Assembly (NCBI GenBank): GCA_963827685.1
Contig: CAWHBU010000006.1
Span: 192,001-256,000 of the forward strand
Direction of reading: 5' to 3'
Origin: an uncultured delta proteobacterium
GTDB taxonomy: Bacteria > Desulfobacterota > BSN033 > UBA1163
Length of the DNA: 64,000 bases
Positions 12,115 to 21,990 of the stretch are shown here, piece after piece. The position numbers and the translations under genes are program-made. Every line of letters starts with the position of its first letter. Positions within the stretch are counted from its first letter, which is position 1. The notes beneath the pieces were generated by a model. The model saw nothing but the letters and a program-made list of their open reading frames with translations, was not told where the DNA came from and ran no database searches.

Positions 12115-12246
12115 TGGAGGATAGGCTGAGGGTCTGGTCGTCTATCGATAATGTCAAAGATGGTTTGGGAGACAAAACACAAATTCTATTTATTAGACGG
12201 CGATCCGCTTGTGGGGGAACTGGTCTCTACTGACCGGACACATTTT

Positions 12247-12821
12247 TCAAATTGTCAAAGCAATCTTAAATTGTCTGAGGACGTACCTCCACTCACTTTG
12301 TGGGGGAACATTTTGTCGGTCGATTGTGATCCGATTCACCAAATGCTTATCATGGATCATAAGGAGATTCTCAGCATCATTCTCCTCAGCAGCCTTGGTG
12401 AAATTGAAAGACCCGGTAATCACTGTCTCCCCATCTATTATCATCACTTTATTGTGGGCTATGGCGTATTGAGCATCTATTTTGACAGGTATCCCTTGGT
12501 TATAGAGAGAAAGGTGGCTGATGAATACTTCTGTGTCCTTTGGCTCTTATCCAGAATGACTTCTATCTTGACCCCGCTTTTGTTGGCATTCAACAGGGCT
12601 TTAGCAATTGGTGCGGATGTGAAAGAGTAGGCTTGGACGAGGATGCTGCTCTTGGCTTTATTCAATTCCCGGATAATGGCATCTGTGCAGCCTCCGTGTG
12701 GGGAAAAGTAAACTTCCCAGGTGCAGGCGGTAGGTTTTTCTTGGGATATGGTGGTGGGCGGGGATAAAGCAATCCAGAGGGTAATGGTGAAGAGCGCAAG
12801 TAAAGCGGTTATTCGATTCAT
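12247..12821 (-). pseudogene. Phospholipase D-family (Nuc-like) secreted nuclease, frameshifted
   Basis: Signal peptide + EVYFSPHGGCT..AYSFTS..ILDKSQ; removing 2 nt in a TCTCTCT run (~12505) restores FLYNQGIPVKID..AHNKVMIID..TGSFNF (HKD motif). Confidence 0.85.
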
Positions 12822-12948
12822 TCTCCCTCAGGTACTAATCCCCATATCCTCTTCAAGGGTAACTCTGCCTTTAGCTCATCATCGAAGTGTTCCCTTTACT
12901 TTATTTTCAAGAGTATCCCTATCAAATCCCTCCTCAGACTCTTTCCCA

Positions 12949-13305
12949 TCAAAATGGTACGTCCTCATTCTCTTGTGTCTCATTGATCGAGCCTGCAATG
13001 GGTGCTATTCCCACATCACTATCACACGCTTCAAAGATTAAACTATTTAGTTTGGGATCGCCCCTCTCAAAATATTTTAACTCGGCCCAAAGACTAGAGA
13101 GGTGTATAATTATTTCTTTTTCAACTCTTTCTTTGTTTCCTCTGATTCCAATTCTAATTGATTTGTTCCTTCTTAATATCCCGCCCATGGGAGGTTCATA
13201 CACCTGAATGTAATTAAATCGTAAGCCAAAAACATAGTGTGCCACTGCGTGACTCGCTTCGTGGATAGCCGTTCCTAATAACATTTTTTCCGGTTTCATC
13301 TTCAT
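12949..13305 (-). CDS. Small HExxH metalloprotease-like protein (M41/M50-like), possibly truncated
   Basis: TAIHEASHAVA motif. Confidence 0.55.
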   Translation of the reverse strand: MKMKPEKMLLGTAIHEASHAVAHYVFGLRFNYIQVYEPPMGGILRRNKSIRIGIRGNKERVEKEIIIHLSSLWAELKYFERGDPKLNSLIFEACDSDVGIAPIAGSINETQENEDVPF

Positions 13306-13733: not shown

Positions 13734-13772
13734 AAAAAGAAAAAGCCCTTTAATTTCAAGGGCCTTTTCTTC
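13734..13772 (-). terminator. Intrinsic terminator after ssrA
   Basis: AGAAAAGGCCCTT-loop-AAGGGCTTTTTCT followed by a U run on the minus strand. Confidence 0.75.
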
Positions 13773-13778
13773 TCAATA

Positions 13779-14133
13779 TGGTGGAGGCGGCGGGAATCGA
13801 ACCCGCGTCCGAGAACCTTCCGGCAGAGCATCTACATACATAGCCTATGTTTTAGATTCGCCCTTCCAAACTCCCACAGGCAGGATTCCAGAAGAACTAG
13901 CTTATGAAGATTCGCTCCTCACCCTATAAGCGTCGGGGAGAAACTATCCTGTTTTTCTGACATCCCTTTCCACCCCACAGGAAGGAATGGGAGGGACGCT
14001 AGCTGCGCTTAGGCAGCCAGGGCATAATCGTAGTTGTTTGCGATTATGTTTAACCCCATTTGTTTTACGAGCCAATGGGACCTCGGCATGCAGCCCTGAC
14101 GTCAACGATCCCCGTCGAACCCTTTTCGCCCCC
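13779..14133 (-). ncRNA. ssrA: tmRNA; tag peptide (A)ANNYDYALAA* at 14009-14041
   Basis: 5' GGGGGCG..GGTTCGAC; 3' GGTTCGATTCCCGCCGCCTCCACCA; acceptor stem with G3.U; tag ends YALAA. Confidence 0.97.
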
Positions 14134-14563
14134 TTTCCATCTCACGTTCCATGGTTCTCTTCTTGAGAGTCTCCCTCTTATCAAAGAGCTTCTTTCCTTT
14201 TGCGAGAGCGAGATCAACCTTAACCCTTCCATCGACAAAGTAGAGCTTGATCGGAATCAGCGTATACCCCCTCTGCTCCACTTTGCCAATGAGGCGCTTG
14301 ATCTCCTTCTTGTGAAGGAGGAGTTTCCTTGTCCTCAATGGATCGTGATTCAATCTGTTTGCCTGGGGATAAGGGCTGATATGAGCATCGACAAGAAAGA
14401 CCTCACCTCTTTTAATATCGCCGTAACTATCGCCCAGGTTGACTTTTCCGTCCCGTAAGGACTTGACCTCGGAACCAAGCAAGGATATCCCGGCCCGGTA
14501 TGTCTCTTCGATGAAGTAATTATGAAATGCCTTTTTGTTCTGACAAATCAACTTTTCTCCCAT
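14102..14563 (-). CDS. smpB: SsrA-binding protein
   Basis: [40 protein letters not shown]; last 32 nt lie within tmRNA. Confidence 0.97.
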
Positions 14564-14782
14564 CTCTCAAAACCACGCATAGAGCACAGCGCTAAGCGCA
14601 TAGCGATAACAAAGTCAAATAGCTAGGTTAATAGGAAAATCACCTTCTTGGCTATTTATATTTATTTTAGCGGAAAAATAGATTTAAATCAAAGAATTCC
14701 TTCACTCTAAATGCTTTCCTCCCATCAAGGGAAAGGAGAAAAGAGGTCAATTTGCTGGTGGGTTCTTACGCCATGCCCCATG

Positions 14783-14836: not shown

Positions 14837-17008
14837 TTAAACATGGACGGGGAGTTCGATGAGGAAGGTCGTGCCTTTGGGTTTGTTGTCCCGTACCCGG
14901 ATATATCCGTTGTGATCAGAGATGATGGCATTGACAATGGCCAGCCCTAATCCCGTCCCACTTTTTTTGGTGGAGAAATAGGGCTCGAATAGTCTCTCTT
15001 TGTCCTCTTCAGAGATCCCACAACCATCGTCACTCACCTCAAGGTGGACTGTCTGCAATTTGGGATTGTAGCTTGTCTGGATTCTGATCTTCCCTCCGTT
15101 TTCGATGGCGGCAAGACTATTTTTGACCAAATTGATCATCACCCGCTTCATCTGATCCCGGTCGACATTGAGGACAGGAAGCTCGTTGGGAACAAATTCA
15201 AAATGGACTTGTTTTTGGAATCCCTGAAAGAGCGCGAGCGTCTCCTGAATGATCTCATTGAGATGATTGGGAGTAGGTTGGGAAGCGGGCATTCGAGCAA
15301 AGTTTGAGAATTCATTAACCATCGTTTTCAATTCTTCAACCTGTTTCACAATCGTCCGGGTGCACTCATCAAAGACCGTCCCATCGGGTTGAACTTTTTC
15401 CAAGTACCTTTTCCTCAGCCGTTGGGCAGAAAGTTGGATAGGGGTCAAAGGATTTTTGATCTCATGGGCAATCCGGCGGGCCACCTCCCTCCAGGCCGCC
15501 ATCCTCTGGGCTTTAATCAACTGGGTGAGGTCGTCGAAGACAGCCACGATACCGAGCGATTTTCCCTCTTCATCCTTGAGGGTCGTCAGATTGATCAACA
15601 GGGATAAAGATTTTCCCTCCAAGTTCACAACGACCTGTCTCTCAATGGAATCTTTCCGAGCAGATTTGAGTTCGTTCAATAATCGCTCAATCTGTCCCAC
15701 ATACTCCTTTGGCAATACCTGGGAGAAATCTTTCTCCAAGACTGCTTCTCCTTTGATCTCTAACATCTGCTCCGCGGAAGTGTTGATTGTCGTCACATTT
15801 CCTTTCTCATCGATGGAGATCACTCCAGCGGCCACATTTTTCAGGACGATCTCCATGTATTTCTTTCGTTGTTCCAACTCAGAACGGCTCACCTGGAGGT
15901 CCCCCGTCATCTGATTGAAGGATTGGACAAGCATCCCAATCTCATCGGCCGCTTTCATCTGAATTCGGAAATTGAGATCTCCTGAAGCAATCCGAGAGGT
16001 GGCCTCTGCCAAGTCTTTGATGGGAACCGTAATATCCTTGGCTAAATGGAAACCGAACCAAGTGGCTGAGAAGACGATGAGAAGGGTCACCATCAGCAAA
16101 GCCATCATGTAGCTAAACTTGATCGGCTTTTTCAAAATCTTCAATTGCTTATATTCCACAAAAGCCTGCGAGATCTCACGCATCTTGACCGTTAGACTTT
16201 TCGGAATAAAATGCGATGCCACAACGATTCCCACTACCCCCCCTCCTTCCGAAACGTTGAAAATGGGGGCGATACCAGTAATCATCTCTCCTTCTCCCAC
16301 AGACAAAATTCTGGAAACCTCTTTCCCTGATAGCCCTGCATCTAAAAAATCCTTTGGAAGTTGGAGAGAAACAGGTTTGAGCGTGGGATCCTCTACTCGA
16401 ATCATATTCCCCTCTCCCTCCAAAAATATCCCGAGGGTGCTGAGATAGTATTCTTTTCGTTTGGCTTCCAGCTGTTCCCTCAAAAAGTTCAATTCTCTTG
16501 ATCCCTTGTGAATACCTTGTTCGGAGAGGGACTTACTGACCTGTTGAGCGGCGGAGACCACGTCGTTGGCAAAATCTCGATAATAGGTCTGCGCCACTTC
16601 TAAGGATCCTTGAAGGGACTGCTCTACCTGGGCGCTAAACCAATGTTCCACACTATTGGTGATGAAGCCCACGGCTACCAAAAAGAGAAGGATGGTTGGA
16701 ACGAGGGAAAGGCTGACAAAAGCCACCACCAATTTGGTCCTGAGCCTGGCTCCCAGAACTTTCCGTTTCCGCTCAAAGATCAGTTTTACAAGATTCCGGA
16801 TCACCAAAAAGATCAGGAGGAGAATCAGGATGATGTTAATATTAATGAGGCTGAAGATAATGATATTGTTGGCAACAGGGATTTTCCCTCCTATTTGGGG
16901 GAATTTCATCTCGATGGTTGTAAAGATGAGAATGAGGATGGAGATGATCCCAATGATAATTAGCTCATTTCGGCGTCTTCTTGCATCAGGGGAAAGTGCT
17001 TTCTTCAT
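14837..17008 (-). CDS. NtrY-like HAMP/PAS sensor histidine kinase
   Basis: RLRTKLV.AFV.LSLVP, AWREVARRIAHEIKNPLTPIQLSA, FEPYFSTK..GTGLGL. Confidence 0.9.
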   Translation of the reverse strand: MKKALSPDARRRRNELIIIGIISILILIFTTIEMKFPQIGGKIPVANNIIIFSLININIILILLLIFLVIRNLVKLIFERKRKVLGARLRTKLVVAFVSLSLVPTILLFLVAVGFITNSVEHWFSAQVEQSLQGSLEVAQTYYRDFANDVVSAAQQVSKSLSEQGIHKGSRELNFLREQLEAKRKEYYLSTLGIFLEGEGNMIRVEDPTLKPVSLQLPKDFLDAGLSGKEVSRILSVGEGEMITGIAPIFNVSEGGGVVGIVVASHFIPKSLTVKMREISQAFVEYKQLKILKKPIKFSYMMALLMVTLLIVFSATWFGFHLAKDITVPIKDLAEATSRIASGDLNFRIQMKAADEIGMLVQSFNQMTGDLQVSRSELEQRKKYMEIVLKNVAAGVISIDEKGNVTTINTSAEQMLEIKGEAVLEKDFSQVLPKEYVGQIERLLNELKSARKDSIERQVVVNLEGKSLSLLINLTTLKDEEGKSLGIVAVFDDLTQLIKAQRMAAWREVARRIAHEIKNPLTPIQLSAQRLRKRYLEKVQPDGTVFDECTRTIVKQVEELKTMVNEFSNFARMPASQPTPNHLNEIIQETLALFQGFQKQVHFEFVPNELPVLNVDRDQMKRVMINLVKNSLAAIENGGKIRIQTSYNPKLQTVHLEVSDDGCGISEEDKERLFEPYFSTKKSGTGLGLAIVNAIISDHNGYIRVRDNKPKGTTFLIELPVHV

Positions 17009-17084
17009 CGTTACCCTGTTTCTCCTATTAACTTGCCCAATCCCCACCGCTCCCTTTTAGCAAGAGGGGACGGGGGAGGATTTT

Positions 17085-17657
17085 TTATGACGGAAGAGGT
17101 TCGAGATGCCAATCGGTTTCAAAATCCCATAAAGAGACGAAAAAGAAGAGATACTCTAAATGTAGAGGAAGCCTGACCGGGTCCAATTCAGCCTTGATCC
17201 AAAAATAAGCAGGAGCTCCTGGTTTGAATTGGGAGGGAGTTTGAAATTCCAACTCTTTCACTCTTGACATCAGCCTTTTGGCCTCCTCCAAACTTGAAAC
17301 GGCCAACGGGGGATGCTTCTCTCCTAATTTTACTTGATACACTTTTTGAATGGGATGGTACTGAACTGTGTGATGAAACTCGACAGAGGCAACTTTCCGA
17401 TCTTTCCACCAACTTCTCTTCTGATAAAGACGAACATAAAAGGTAAAGGTCGTCCGCATTCCTGACTGGATAGCCTCCTCCATCTTATTTGTGAAACAGT
17501 TCTCTACATCAAAACTGACCTTCCAAACTCTATTCGTCCCCTTCACATTGACATCTTTGATGGCAGCTTTTTGGCAGAGGGCCGAAAGGGGATGAATCAA
17601 GATTAGAAGGAAAACCACCCCTCCGATTATCCACTTTTTAGGAATCCGAAGTTGCAT
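17085..17657 (-). CDS. DUF4390-like exported protein
   Basis: Signal peptide, MEEAIQSG...F, C-terminal WDFETDW; usual neighbour of ntrY. Confidence 0.7.
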   Translation of the reverse strand: MQLRIPKKWIIGGVVFLLILIHPLSALCQKAAIKDVNVKGTNRVWKVSFDVENCFTNKMEEAIQSGMRTTFTFYVRLYQKRSWWKDRKVASVEFHHTVQYHPIQKVYQVKLGEKHPPLAVSSLEEAKRLMSRVKELEFQTPSQFKPGAPAYFWIKAELDPVRLPLHLEYLFFFVSLWDFETDWHLEPLPS

Positions 17658-18026: not shown

Positions 18027-18610
18027 GGGGAGCCGAAGGGAACCATAAGCCGAGTTCTGTCATCCCGACCCCGCTTTTCAGCGGGAATCGGGAGGATGGC
18101 CATTTATCTAGGGCCCTGATTGCCCAGGGTCTCAAGCGACCTTACCCGTTCCGCCTTTGTCCCGATGCAATAGCCTCGGGAACAAATTTGAATGGGCTTT
18201 TCTTATCCTCCCAGTGGAATAGGCGAAACCGCCATTCCACTGGGGGAAGCGGAACCTATTTGGTCTTGCTCCAGGTGGGGTTTACCTAGCTACCCCAATC
18301 GCTCAGGGTACTGGTGAGCTCTTACCTCACCTTTTCACCCTTACCCACCAAGGCTCTCGCCTTGGAGTTCGGAGTTGATAGTTCGGAGTTAAAAGCACTA
18401 AACTCTTAACTCTTCACTCATAACTCTTAACTCCCCGCTATCAGCGGGGCAGGCGGTATGTTTTCTGTGGCACTTTCCTTATCCCGCCTTAGCGGGACAG
18501 TCCGTATTACGGACCACCCTGCCCTGTGGAGCTCGGACTTTCCTCCCCTCCTGATCTCTACTTCACGTGATCTCAGAAGGAGCGACCATCTACTTCCCTT
18601 CGACTCCCCC
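18027..18610 (-). ncRNA. rnpB: RNase P RNA, type A, expanded (~580 nt)
   Basis: GAGGAAAGTCCGAGCTC, AGTGCCACAGAAA, GGTAAACCCC..GAGCAAG, ACAGAACTCGGCTTA; P1 GGGGAGTCGAAGGGAA/TTCCCTTCGGCTCCCC. Confidence 0.95.
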
Positions 18611-18671: not shown

Positions 18672-19118
18672 TCAGAGCCTTCTTCCTTTTTCCTTTGCCA
18701 TCCTCTTCTGGATGGCCTGATTTGCCAAACGGTCTGCCTCTTTGTTCTCTTCCCTTGGAATGGATTGGATCTCAAAGGATGAAAAAGTTTTTAAATTCTG
18801 GAGTACTCTTTTGTGGAGAGTCTTTAAATTCAAATCCTTCACGCGATAGACCCCCTTAATTTGTCTTTCGACCAGTTCCGAATCCGTGAAGATTTTGACG
18901 GTGCCACCCCCCAATCGCTTCGCCTCCCTCAGCCCTAAAAGAAGGGCCCAGTATTCTGCCTCGTTATTCGTCTTGTGGCCGAGAAATCGGCTCACCTCCG
19001 AGACTTTCCTCCCTTCTCCATCCGTAATCCAAATTCCTGCCCCTGCCCTTCCGGGATTTCCCCTGGAGGCCCCATCAATATAAATAACCAATCGACTTTC
19101 TGGCCCCAGGGATTTCAT
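18672..19118 (-). CDS. rnhA: Ribonuclease HI
   Basis: DGASRGNPG.AGAG, TNNEAEY, TDSELV, REENKEADRLAN; ATGA coupling to upstream gene. Confidence 0.9.
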   Translation of the reverse strand: MKSLGPESRLVIYIDGASRGNPGRAGAGIWITDGEGRKVSEVSRFLGHKTNNEAEYWALLLGLREAKRLGGGTVKIFTDSELVERQIKGVYRVKDLNLKTLHKRVLQNLKTFSSFEIQSIPREENKEADRLANQAIQKRMAKEKGRRL

Positions 19119-19855
19119 TTCTTGTTTCGATCTCCGTCCCAATAGAGAATTCGGTTGCAGTTGGGACACCGGACGAGGGTATTATTTTTTTGAACCTCGA
19201 TGAACATCTGAGGGGGGACGTGTACAAAACAGCCCTGGCAGGTCTCATGCTTCGCGCTGACCACACCCACCCCTTGCCTCTTTTCCTTCAGGGTGTTATA
19301 GAGCTTGAACAGTTTGGATTCGATCTGTTTGGAAAGAACCTCCCTTCGTTCCATCTGTTGGTTCCAGGCCTTCTCGTCATGGGTCATCTTTTCCTGAAGC
19401 TTTTTTCTCTCCCCTTCAATTTTTTCCAAGGTGACCCCCATTTCCTTTTCCCTTTTAGAGAGATCCTTCTTGAGCTCATCGATTTCGTCCATGACCTGGA
19501 GCACTTCCTCTTCTATCCGGCTGTTCGCCTCCTTGATGGCATCGATTTCGCTGAGGAGAGCCTGATACTCTTTGTTGGTCTTTACTTCAGACATTCTTCC
19601 TTCTGCCCGCTTGATTTTTTCTTGCTCTAAATTGAGATGTCCCTCTTTCTGCCTCCGGGCCTTCTCTAAGGATTCGATCTTTTCCTTTTCCTTCTGAATC
19701 CTTTCCTTCTCGATCTTCTGTTTCTCATCCAACTTTTTCATCTCCTTGGGATACCGATCTTTTTCCTCCTTAATACTCTTCAGTTCAAGATCAATTTTTT
19801 GAAGTTCCCAAAGCAGTTCTAATTGCTCCCTCAACCCTTGCCTCCTATCTGCCAA
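19115..19855 (-). CDS. C4-type zinc ribbon coiled-coil protein (DUF164)
   Basis: LQKID, long coiled coil, KTNKEYQAL, CQGC...CPNCNRILY. Confidence 0.9.
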   Translation of the reverse strand: MADRRQGLREQLELLWELQKIDLELKSIKEEKDRYPKEMKKLDEKQKIEKERIQKEKEKIESLEKARRQKEGHLNLEQEKIKRAEGRMSEVKTNKEYQALLSEIDAIKEANSRIEEEVLQVMDEIDELKKDLSKREKEMGVTLEKIEGERKKLQEKMTHDEKAWNQQMERREVLSKQIESKLFKLYNTLKEKRQGVGVVSAKHETCQGCFVHVPPQMFIEVQKNNTLVRCPNCNRILYWDGDRNKK

Positions 19856-20193: not shown

Positions 20194-21990
20194 CTATGTT
20201 TCTAAAAAGCTCTTCAGCTTCTTGGCCCGGCTGGGATGTCGCAATTTCCTTAACGCCTTTGCCTCGATCTGTCGGATTCTCTCCCGGGTGACATCAAAAT
20301 CCTGTCCCACTTCCTCTAGCGTATGATCATATTTTTCTCCAATTCCAAACCGCATCCTCAAAACCTTCTCTTCTCTGGGGGTGAGACTGGCCAGGACTTT
20401 TCGAGTCTGTTCTGATAAATTGGCGCTGATCATTGCTTCCTGGGGAGAGATGACTCCTTTGTCTTCGATGAAATCCCCTAAGTGGCTGTCTTCCTCCTCG
20501 CCGATGGGCGTTTCAAGAGAGATGGGCTCTTTGGCAATCTTCAACACCTTCCTCACCTTATCCAAGGCCATATCCATTTTCTCAGCGATCTCTTCAGGAG
20601 TCGGCTCTCTCCCTATCTCTTGGACGAGGTATCTGGAGGTCCGGATCAATTTATTGATTGTCTCGATCATATGAACGGGGATCCGGATGGTCCGCGCCTG
20701 ATCGGCAATGGCTCGTGTGATCGCTTGCCGGATCCACCAGGTCGCGTAGGTACTAAATTTATAACCTCGTTGGTATTCAAATTTGTCCACGGCTTTCATC
20801 AATCCGATATTGCCTTCTTGAATGAGGTCTAAGAATTGCAGCCCACGATTGGTATATTTTTTGGCAATGGAGACGACCAGTCTTAGGTTCGCCTTCACCA
20901 GTTCACTCTTGGCTTCCTTGGCTTTGGTCTCCCCTTCCACGATAGCCCTCACCGCTGTCGCCAATTTGCCAGCAGTCAGGCCGCATTCCGTTTCCACCTT
21001 GTGGATCTTCTTTTGGACATTCAGGGTCGCTCTGGAAATCTCTTGGAGATCGGCTTTACTCAATTTTCGGGTTCTGAGAAGTTTTTTCTCTGTCAACCTC
21101 CTTGCCCTCAACTTCTTCAGATAGGTCCGCGCCTCCTGGACAGAAATCCCCCATTTGTCTCCAATCTTCTCAATCTCGCTTTCCCCCTTTTGCACCCGGT
21201 TCAGCATCTGTTTCATCTTTTGAATGACCTTATTAATTTGAGTGTCCCTCAGATTCATCTGGTTGAAAAATGCCAGGATCTCTTCTCGTTTCTTTTTAAT
21301 CTCTGTCTGTCTCTTTTTGTTTCCCTTCTGCTGCTGCTTCTTCATCCACTTTTGCTTCTTCTTAACCTGTTTTTGAACCTTCCTCTTCAACAGGGCCTTC
21401 CCTCTCAGGAGCCTCCGAATATCTTCATCTTTTCGCTTCATCTTTTCGATGAGGTCCAGAATCTTTTTCTTCTGGATCTGTTCTTCCTCAAAGCTTGTCT
21501 CCTCTTCATCGATCTCGTTGGTCACTTCCCGGATCTCCACCTTGCCAGCCTTAATCAGGTTACCCAGATTGATTACCTCTTTAACCGCCATGGGACAGTT
21601 CAAGACGACGCTCAGCACTTCTCTCTTACCGCTTTCAATTCTCTTGGCAATCTCCACTTCTCCTTCTCGGGTGAGGAGAGAAACGGATCCCATCTCACGG
21701 AGATACATCCGGACAGGGTCCGTGGCCCTGCCAAAAGTCTCCATTTCCAATTCATCGCCTTCCTCCTCTTCTTTCTCTACGGCCTTCTCTTCCTCCACTT
21801 TCAACCCCTGGAGGTCATCGACCACATCGATGTCCATCTCATCGAACATCATGAGGACATCATCAATCTGATCAGAGGAGACGATATCGTTGGGAGGGAT
21901 ATCACTTGCCTCATCGAAGGTTAGAAATCCCTTCTCCCCTTCCATAGGAACCAATTGCTCAACCTCTTTGATCTTTCCTCCCTTGGCCAT
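20194..21990 (-). CDS. rpoD: RNA polymerase primary sigma factor
   Basis: [57 protein letters not shown]. Confidence 0.98.

Follow-up and report, generated by a model that had tools for sequence, protein, structure and literature searches.

The smpB gene ends inside the downstream ssrA gene, which encodes tmRNA, in a 64,000-nucleotide stretch of DNA from an uncultured delta proteobacterium (this whole analyzed stretch is called the window here). The arrangement is retained throughout the bacterial family to which the window belongs. We propose that smpB and ssrA probably form one transcription unit, in which maturation of the tmRNA by RNase P separates the smpB reading frame from its stop codon, so that SmpB output would be coupled to how tmRNA is synthesized and processed.

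The smpB stop codon lies within the mature tmRNA

The elements of the locus are as follows:

13779..14133, minus strand: ssrA, tmRNA of the standard one-piece form (ARAGORN and Rfam RF00023)
14102..14563, minus strand: smpB coding sequence, 153 codons plus TGA (ORF, Pfam and NCBIfam)
14102..14133, minus strand: dual-use stretch of 32 nt, tmRNA nt 1-32 and at the same time the 3' end of smpB
14009..14041, minus strand: tmRNA tag reading frame, ANNYDYALAA plus stop (ARAGORN gene positions 93-125, converted to window coordinates)

Nucleotides 1-32 of the tmRNA thus also supply the final two bases of codon 144 in smpB, followed by codons 145-153 and TGA as the stop codon. The minus-strand sequence across the junction is ...GAG ATG GAA A/GG GGG CGA AAA GGG TTC GAC GGG GAT CGT TGA, with the slash marking the start of the tmRNA, and SmpB therefore ends in ...GFDGDR. 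A stop codon inside the tmRNA and an overlap of 32 nt had been claimed in a first-pass annotation, and both were confirmed in every detail by ARAGORN, by RF00023 and by the minus-strand sequence. The two programs agree on 14133 as the 5' end of the tmRNA, and the RF00023 match (219.8 bits, gathering score 47) spans model positions 1-374 without truncation. The same annotation had described the pairing of the tmRNA ends, and the acceptor stem was indeed seen as GGGGGCG/CGCCUCC, followed by ACCA and including the G3.U pair. With its full-length covariance-model match, its tRNA-like ends with G3.U and CCA, and its tag reading frame, the RNA is a standard one-piece tmRNA.

The ORF at 14102-14563 on the minus strand is the sole SmpB ORF at the locus. 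Its product scored 208.7 bits against Pfam PF01668 (cut-off 27), with residues 6-145 aligned to positions 1-140 of the 143 in this profile. The scores against two NCBIfam equivalogs were 215.6 bits for NF003843 (cut-off 130) and 193.8 bits for TIGR00086 (cut-off 119.1). The tail contains the motifs KGKK at residues 122-125 and DKR at residues 128-130, followed by 23 residues, the final 10 of which are encoded by tmRNA nt 1-29. The C-terminal tail of E. coli SmpB, as described in the relevant sections of PMC4151336, likewise consists of the KGKK and DKR motifs and about 20 further residues, with KGKK at 131, DKR at 137 and a tail helix at 142-160. The tmRNA-encoded residues 144-153 would match about the last eight residues of that helix. 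A single smpB gene and a single tmRNA above the cut-off were found in the 5.23 Mb genome, which is a metagenome-type assembly of 14 contigs with 94.5% completeness and 7.98% contamination.

The overlap is conserved throughout the family

The family of the window is represented by 55 species genomes, of which 49 yielded an smpB match, and matches were obtained in 20 of 21 genera. The distance between the smpB stop codon and tmRNA nt 1 was measured on the extracted loci using tblastn and ARAGORN. In 43 of the 43 family genomes in which both gene ends were visible, the identical 32-nt overlap and the TGA stop codon were found. For 42 of these genomes the overlap was determined by script (19 of 21 loci in one set and 23 of 26 in another), and for one (G050) by hand, as its smpB gene is frameshifted; the last piece ends 32 nt inside the tmRNA. 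The frameshift splits this gene (G050:C32:7256-7709) into pieces covering residues 3-90 and 87-153. In four assemblies (L011, L019, L144 and L147) the contig ends fall within or just past the overlap, and the tail is unchanged. The remaining two smpB matches of the family are N-terminal fragments at contig edges. One family genome contains a second smpB with 45% identity on a separate contig (G003:C708:35-463), possibly as a result of contamination.

In a metagenome-type assembly with 14 contigs and 7.98% contamination, an apparent overlap of this kind could be an artefact, caused by a sequencing or assembly error, by the loss of a stop codon in one assembled genome, or by a miscalled 5' end of the tmRNA. 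The family survey already contradicts this explanation. Neither chance nor error would give the same junction in 43 independent species genomes, two programs are concordant on the tmRNA 5' end, and the coordinates from Infernal and ARAGORN also agree in other families with overlapping genes. We thus attach hardly any weight to an artefact. The first-pass annotation had named close relatives with a stop codon before 14133 as the observation that would speak against its reading; no such relative was seen among the 43 genomes.

Within the family, the identity to the SmpB protein of the window is as low as 73%, so the overlap has been maintained through substantial divergence. The tmRNA-encoded tail is the same throughout the family, apart from two single-residue exceptions (L022 and L139), and the family genomes have sizes of 1.8-6.5 Mb. 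The synonymous positions were analyzed in 43 distinct family sequences. The mean synonymous-codon entropy was 1.14 bits for codons 2-129 and 1.18 bits for codons 130-143, and it dropped to 0.0 for codons 144-153; the pattern was the same in a set of 21 sequences. The synonymous constraint thus starts precisely at tmRNA nt 1. Since the constraint on the tmRNA alone suffices to account for the invariance of the tail, there is no sign that the tail or the overlap is under selection for the sake of the protein.

The overlap is derived and arose at least twice

Two sister families of the same class were used for comparison. In one of them (f2), ssrA is located 37-107 nt downstream of smpB in all five loci with a visible tmRNA, whereas in the second no tmRNA was found within 1.5 kb of smpB (5 of 5 loci). 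The SmpB proteins of the sister families have 152-153 residues and end in ...EREMERSFKGRRIR or ...ERSYRGARIKL. As the sister families lack the overlap and have tails of equal length, the overlap in the family of the window is derived. The comparison indicates that the last ten smpB codons were replaced by tmRNA sequence with retention of length, and that no extension was gained. The tmRNA of f2 has the same first 22 bases as that of the window's family, and the TGA is already present at nt 30-32. We infer that a deletion in the ancestor of the family took out the intergenic spacer together with the last ten or so smpB codons. This deletion would have joined ...ATGGAA-A to G1 of the tmRNA, such that the reading frame met the pre-existing TGA at tmRNA nt 30-32, and use of this stop codon would have kept the length of the SmpB tail normal.

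The distribution of overlaps was further analyzed in a broad sample that drew 80 SmpB loci from named assemblies across several phyla. It was devoid of members of the window's family, and the highest SmpB identity was 66% (labelled Desulfomonile tiedjei or delta proteobacterium). The ssrA gene was found downstream on the same strand in 53 of the 80 loci, at gaps of 1-760 nt, five of which were 1-10 nt. In one uncultured delta proteobacterium assembly (L059, about 2001-2576), SmpB has 191 aa, the usual stop codon is lost and the frame continues for 72 nt into the tmRNA. The spacer at this locus holds a good promoter (TTGACC-16-TAATAT). The read-through was seen in a single assembly and is possibly a sequencing error.

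The phylum of the window was sampled with 151 genomes, of which 129 contained a tmRNA and 147 an smpB match. In 72 genomes, smpB is located directly upstream of ssrA within 500 nt, as calculated by hand from two coordinate tables. The exact distance was measured for the 35 pairs with the smallest distances; in the other 37 pairs at least 52 nt separate the end of the Pfam match from the tmRNA. An overlap was found in 13 of the 35 exactly measured pairs. It occurred in 5 of 5 pairs from the window's family, in 4 of 4 pairs from family f17 (28 nt; ...ALL/GAKRARRE, TAG), and in 3 of 3 pairs from family f16 (25 nt; ...DHV/GAKRFRR, TGA). In a locus of family f28 (L165, G092:C71) the overlap is confined to 1 nt, the G of the smpB TAG being G1 of the tmRNA, and RNase P cleavage would leave ...UA, an incomplete stop codon. 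Searches of whole families revealed the overlap in 6 of 6 f17 genomes with smpB (the family has 9 genomes) and in 3 of 3 f16 genomes. Both families fall outside the class of the window's family, and their frame and junction are different, which argues that the overlap arose at least twice. Because related genomes are not independent, the numbers of overlaps are not frequencies of events.

Of the other exactly measured pairs of the phylum, 19 have gaps of 1-28 nt and two have gaps of 67 and 71 nt. Hence, the phylum as a whole holds smpB and ssrA nearly touching, and with short spacers throughout, the recurrence of overlaps could reflect a deletion bias rather than selection. The purine-rich 5' end of the tmRNA encodes basic residues in both frames that are used, RGRKG... 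in the window's family and GAKRARRE or GAKRFRR in f17 and f16. SmpB tails are usually basic.

smpB and ssrA are likely to be co-transcribed

The following transcription signals were assigned:

14664..14692, minus strand: putative sigma-70-type promoter of the smpB-ssrA unit, TTGATT-17 nt-TAAAAT (pattern scan and 21-locus alignment)
14564..14663, minus strand: presumed smpB 5' untranslated leader, a lineage-variable insert present in the window and its closest relatives (21-locus alignment)
13734..13764, minus strand: intrinsic terminator after ssrA, GC hairpin and T run (sequence and hairpin scan; fold -24.8 kcal/mol)

The -35 motif TTGATT was found in 19 of 21 aligned family loci and a TAAAAT-like -10 motif in 20 of 21. 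The two rows without the -35 motif do not reach the site, because of a contig start (L020) or the 150-nt extraction window (L017). In the window and its closest relatives, the promoter and the smpB ATG are separated by an insert of about 100 nt, which contains repeated GCTATGCGC-like motifs. The insert is missing from 5 of the 21 family loci (L023 and L027-L030), in which the -10 box is 6-10 nt away from the smpB start codon, and there the smpB mRNA may be leaderless or nearly so. In accordance with the first-pass annotation, the sole terminator is that after ssrA, at about 13734-13764 on the minus strand, and the genes have no spacer. The hairpin scan listed it on the plus strand, the stem being palindromic, and the T run follows on the minus strand. 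A comparable hairpin and T run were found in 11-12 of the 18 family loci with at least 70 nt of downstream sequence. As smpB and ssrA are not separated by a spacer, there is no room for a terminator between them.

Internal promoters were sought within smpB. Synonymous variation in the 43 family sequences is normal through codon 143, and therefore the 42 nt before the tmRNA 5' end contain no conserved promoter or leader element. Among 21 family sequences, no sigma-70-like site inside smpB was positionally common to at least four of them, except for one at positions 18-45 of the coding sequence, which occurred in seven sequences and is driven by codons. This site is located at 14546..14519 in the window and matches the sigma-70 consensus in 10 of 12 positions. 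It was rejected as a promoter, because it is produced by the codons for I-C-Q...H-N and recurs in 7 of 21 relatives. Six lineages with short gaps (L109, L119, L074, L075, L103 and L031) have -35 and -10 boxes in the last smpB codons or in the short spacer, which would start transcription at or near G1 of the tmRNA; nothing comparable was found in the window's family.

The rpoD gene for the housekeeping sigma-70 factor is present in the window. As the single conserved sigma-70-type promoter precedes smpB and the single terminator follows ssrA, an smpB-ssrA co-transcript is likely, and a single transcript is the simplest reading of the locus. In Corynebacterium diphtheriae, RNA-seq shows that the tmRNA is co-transcribed with smpB, as stated in the pertinent part of PMC5784534.

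The RNA data came from sequencing runs in the form of assembled contigs, each run with about a fifth of the sampled words. Contigs with tmRNA sequence occurred in four RNA libraries from four studies, with summed depths of 10^3-10^5 that include conserved tmRNA parts of other organisms. Just beyond 14141 the depths were 108.7 (X3), 36.3 (X4), 0 (X5) and 5.22 (X9). Because assembled contigs show neither ends nor strand nor level, and because foreign tmRNA is included in the sums, the drop in depth past 14141 allows no conclusion. One contig of library X9 (record 32, 255 nt long, with a depth of 5.22 and 16 differences) spans 14106-14355 and extends 28 nt past the tmRNA 5' end, which is below the 31 nt required of a bridging contig.

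Maturation of tmRNA would generate a non-stop smpB mRNA

The 5' end of tmRNA is generated by RNase P, according to PMC3985003. The window contains a gene for the RNase P RNA (RF00010, 260.1 bits, 18030-18602, minus strand), and the predicted cleavage site is:

14133..14134, minus strand: predicted RNase P cleavage site A14134/G14133, inside smpB codon 144 (from the two-program 5' end and PMC3985003)

With the tmRNA 5' end inside codon 144, maturation by RNase P must part the smpB frame from its stop codon. In the proposed mechanism, smpB and ssrA would be one transcription unit from the promoter upstream of smpB to the terminator after ssrA. Cleavage of the co-transcript would release an upstream fragment ending in ...GAG AUG GAA A, devoid of a stop codon, and full-length SmpB would be completed solely on precursors that have not yet been cut. 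Ribosomes that are on the 5' fragment, or load onto it later, would reach a 3' end without a stop. A ribosome at the stop-less end of an mRNA is the textbook substrate of tmRNA-SmpB. Rescue by tmRNA-SmpB would yield SmpB residues 1-143 followed by the tmRNA-borne alanine and the encoded tag, and the product would then be degraded. Conversely, a ribosome positioned over the first 32 nt of the tmRNA would keep the acceptor stem from forming. The yield of SmpB would be set by a race between translation and processing, and by the rescue capacity. If cleavage is fast compared to translation, little full-length SmpB can be made, and thus the balance would have to favor translation. Cutting of the co-transcript by RNase P, formation of a non-stop smpB mRNA and tagging of SmpB are here deduced from general knowledge of tmRNA maturation. 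Taken together, we consider it probable, by a modest degree, that the genes form one unit, that maturation yields a non-stop smpB mRNA, and that SmpB output is coupled in this way to tmRNA synthesis and processing. The first-pass annotation had put forward such a feedback, which the comparisons between genomes support in part.

Alternatively, the stalled ribosomes might be handled by an ArfB-like release factor, which would free untagged SmpB 1-143. The genome encodes two small proteins with a GGQ release-factor domain and a basic C-terminal tail, of 119 and 131 aa (L153, G000:C3:257267-257548, and L154, G000:C2:913094-913396). Their layout is ArfB-like, and with 45.4 and 62.3 bits against the ArfB equivalog NF006718 (cut-off 100) they were not filed as ArfB. 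One of them could stem from the 8% contamination of the assembly. A search for ArfA in the genome, which is 94.5% complete, was negative.

The proposed coupling would be marginal if ssrA had its own promoter within smpB that was not recognized by the scans. A weakly conserved promoter, or one that is not of the sigma-70 type, would supply most of the tmRNA from a separate transcript, read-through from smpB would be minor, and cleavage would rarely touch smpB. Such an arrangement has parallels in the short-gap relatives L109 and L119, which carry an ssrA promoter embedded in the 3' end of smpB, and the depth of the tmRNA contigs was at least 100-fold that of smpB in four libraries, although such depths cannot rank genes and a stable RNA accumulates anyway. 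However, the last 14 codons before the tmRNA start are free of synonymous-site constraint, the 3' 400 nt of the gene contain no positionally conserved sigma-70-like site, and, because no terminator separates the genes, transcripts from the smpB promoter must still enter ssrA. We regard a separate internal promoter as quite improbable.

It might also be that the overlap is neutral compaction, a tolerated by-product of the spacer deletion. SmpB would then be made on nascent or uncut transcripts, and the few non-stop products would be waste without any role in regulation. The phylum commonly shows gaps of 1-28 nt, and 5 of the 53 adjacent pairs in the broad sample have gaps of 1-10 nt. The stop codons that are used (TGA at nt 30-32 and TAG at nt 26-28) are already found in the tmRNAs of non-overlapping relatives, and the invariance of the tail is wholly accounted for by the constraint on tmRNA. 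All of this would be expected of neutral compaction. It would not by itself explain why the overlap shows no exception in 20 genera and down to 73% SmpB identity, why neither a spacer nor an earlier stop codon has come back in any lineage, and why there were at least two origins in different frames. Moreover, any cut co-transcript gives a non-stop smpB mRNA, so some coupling is unavoidable, and a purely neutral overlap seems rather unlikely to us. The overlap might instead be a selected and repeatedly evolved self-balancing circuit, in which SmpB is made in step with new tmRNA and excess SmpB is tagged. The purine-rich and near-universal 5' end of tmRNA, pre-adapted as the basic end of an SmpB tail, would explain the convergence of independent lineages. 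This possibility is put forward tentatively, and we regard it as less likely than not.

Comparison with known systems

The idea of a feedback at this locus is not new, as it was published for Candidatus Carsonella ruddii a decade ago. The smpB-ssrA overlap of this endosymbiont was described by Mao et al. 2009, cited in Hudson, Lau and Williams 2014 (Front Microbiol 5:421, PMC4131195). The passages of the latter paper on this locus state that maturation is expected to give a non-stop smpB mRNA that would serve its own product as a substrate, and speak of an 'interesting feedback situation'. They also state that the overlap occurred nowhere else in 2031 genome projects, and set the idea aside as 'not widespread'. 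The same passages report 250 cases in which an upstream coding sequence overlaps a t(m)RNA gene on the same strand, out of 115,660 genes of this kind, and identify ssrA as the gene that is found next to smpB most often. Our literature search, which covered papers without their supplementary files, yielded no report on an smpB-ssrA overlap beyond PMC4131195, and the examined sections of the 2025 tmRNA database paper (PMC11915505) contain no mention of it. No paper was found on any of four tag peptides.

Carsonella and the family of the window have in common that the smpB coding sequence enters ssrA on the same strand and that its stop codon lies inside the mature tmRNA. They differ in several respects, as far as the passages on Carsonella go. 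The Carsonella genome has 157-174 kb, in contrast to 1.8-6.5 Mb in the window's family. Its SmpB is devoid of the central loop and the C-terminal tail, whereas the SmpB of the window covers the full profile and has a tail of normal length. The extensions into ssrA are variable in Carsonella and read as random sequence, but the junction is identical in all examined members of the window's family. In addition, the overlap is present in half of the Carsonella strains, and in one strain ssrA is decayed.

Compared to this published case, several aspects are new. The overlap occurs outside a degenerate endosymbiont, and its fixation extends to an entire family whose SmpB and tmRNA are intact. Borrowed tmRNA sequence preserves the length of the SmpB tail, and the overlap arose more than once in the phylum. 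The sole published case concerns a decaying genome with a tail-less SmpB, whereas the genomes of the window's family are of ordinary size. The family is thus a natural system in which feedback can be tested, namely a rescue system that would limit its own protein subunit via the maturation of its RNA subunit, with sister families that have spacers of 1-107 nt as built-in comparisons. The overlap also matters for genome annotation, as pipelines that do not let a coding sequence overlap an RNA gene would shorten or lose the smpB of this family.

The proposed mechanism resembles the control of arfA in E. coli in its logic only. There, an endonuclease makes the mRNA of a rescue factor non-stop, and the product is repressed when trans-translation is active, as described in PMC10107115 and by Garza-Sanchez et al. 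2011, cited in PMC4131195. The nuclease is RNase III, which acts at a hairpin, and the factor is a back-up of tmRNA. At the locus of the window, cleavage would instead be the step by which RNase P matures tmRNA, and the target would be the partner of tmRNA itself.

Overlaps of coding sequences with downstream tRNA genes likewise are on the same strand, are conserved within clades and are expected to give non-stop mRNAs. Table 4 of PMC4131195 lists 44 FtsW/RodA/SpoVE cases, all of them with one tRNA-Ile gene in Helicobacter. In those cases, nothing links the cut mRNA functionally to the rescue system that has to deal with it, unlike in smpB-ssrA. In smpB-ssrA operons of the Corynebacterium diphtheriae type, as far as described in PMC5784534, the stop codon is located upstream of the tmRNA 5' end, and processing leaves a complete reading frame.

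Genes flanking the smpB-ssrA locus

In five family assemblies (L011, L019, L023, L144 and L147), a contig break falls within ssrA or directly at it. Past ssrA, 6 of 18 family loci (L013-L015, L025, L027 and L028) have a sequence that bears no relation to the terminator region usually found there. Both observations are as expected if mobile elements integrate at the 3' end of tmRNA. A scan of the 64-kb window that allowed up to 3 mismatches revealed no further copy of the 26-nt ssrA 3' end. Downstream of ssrA, the window contains short, mutually overlapping ORFs at 12151-13305, which may be gene remnants. They include a partial PLD-like domain (12477-12821, 40.3 bits) and a sub-threshold M50B-like match (12949-13305, 19.4 bits, cut-off 26).

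Upstream, the order of genes on the minus strand is rpoD, CT398-like, RNase H-like, rnpB, DUF4390, NtrY-like, smpB and ssrA, with the following positions:

20194-21990, minus strand: rpoD
19115-19855, minus strand: CT398-like coiled-coil/zinc-ribbon protein
18672-19169, minus strand: RNase H-like protein
18030-18602, minus strand: rnpB, RNase P RNA (RF00010, 260.1 bits)
17085-17657, minus strand: DUF4390 protein
14837-17047, minus strand: NtrY-like histidine kinase

The rnpB gene has 573 nt compared to the 367 positions of the model, and thus it contains insertions. It is located 3.9 kb upstream of ssrA on the same strand, such that the gene for the RNase P RNA and its presumed substrate ssrA are near neighbors in the window.
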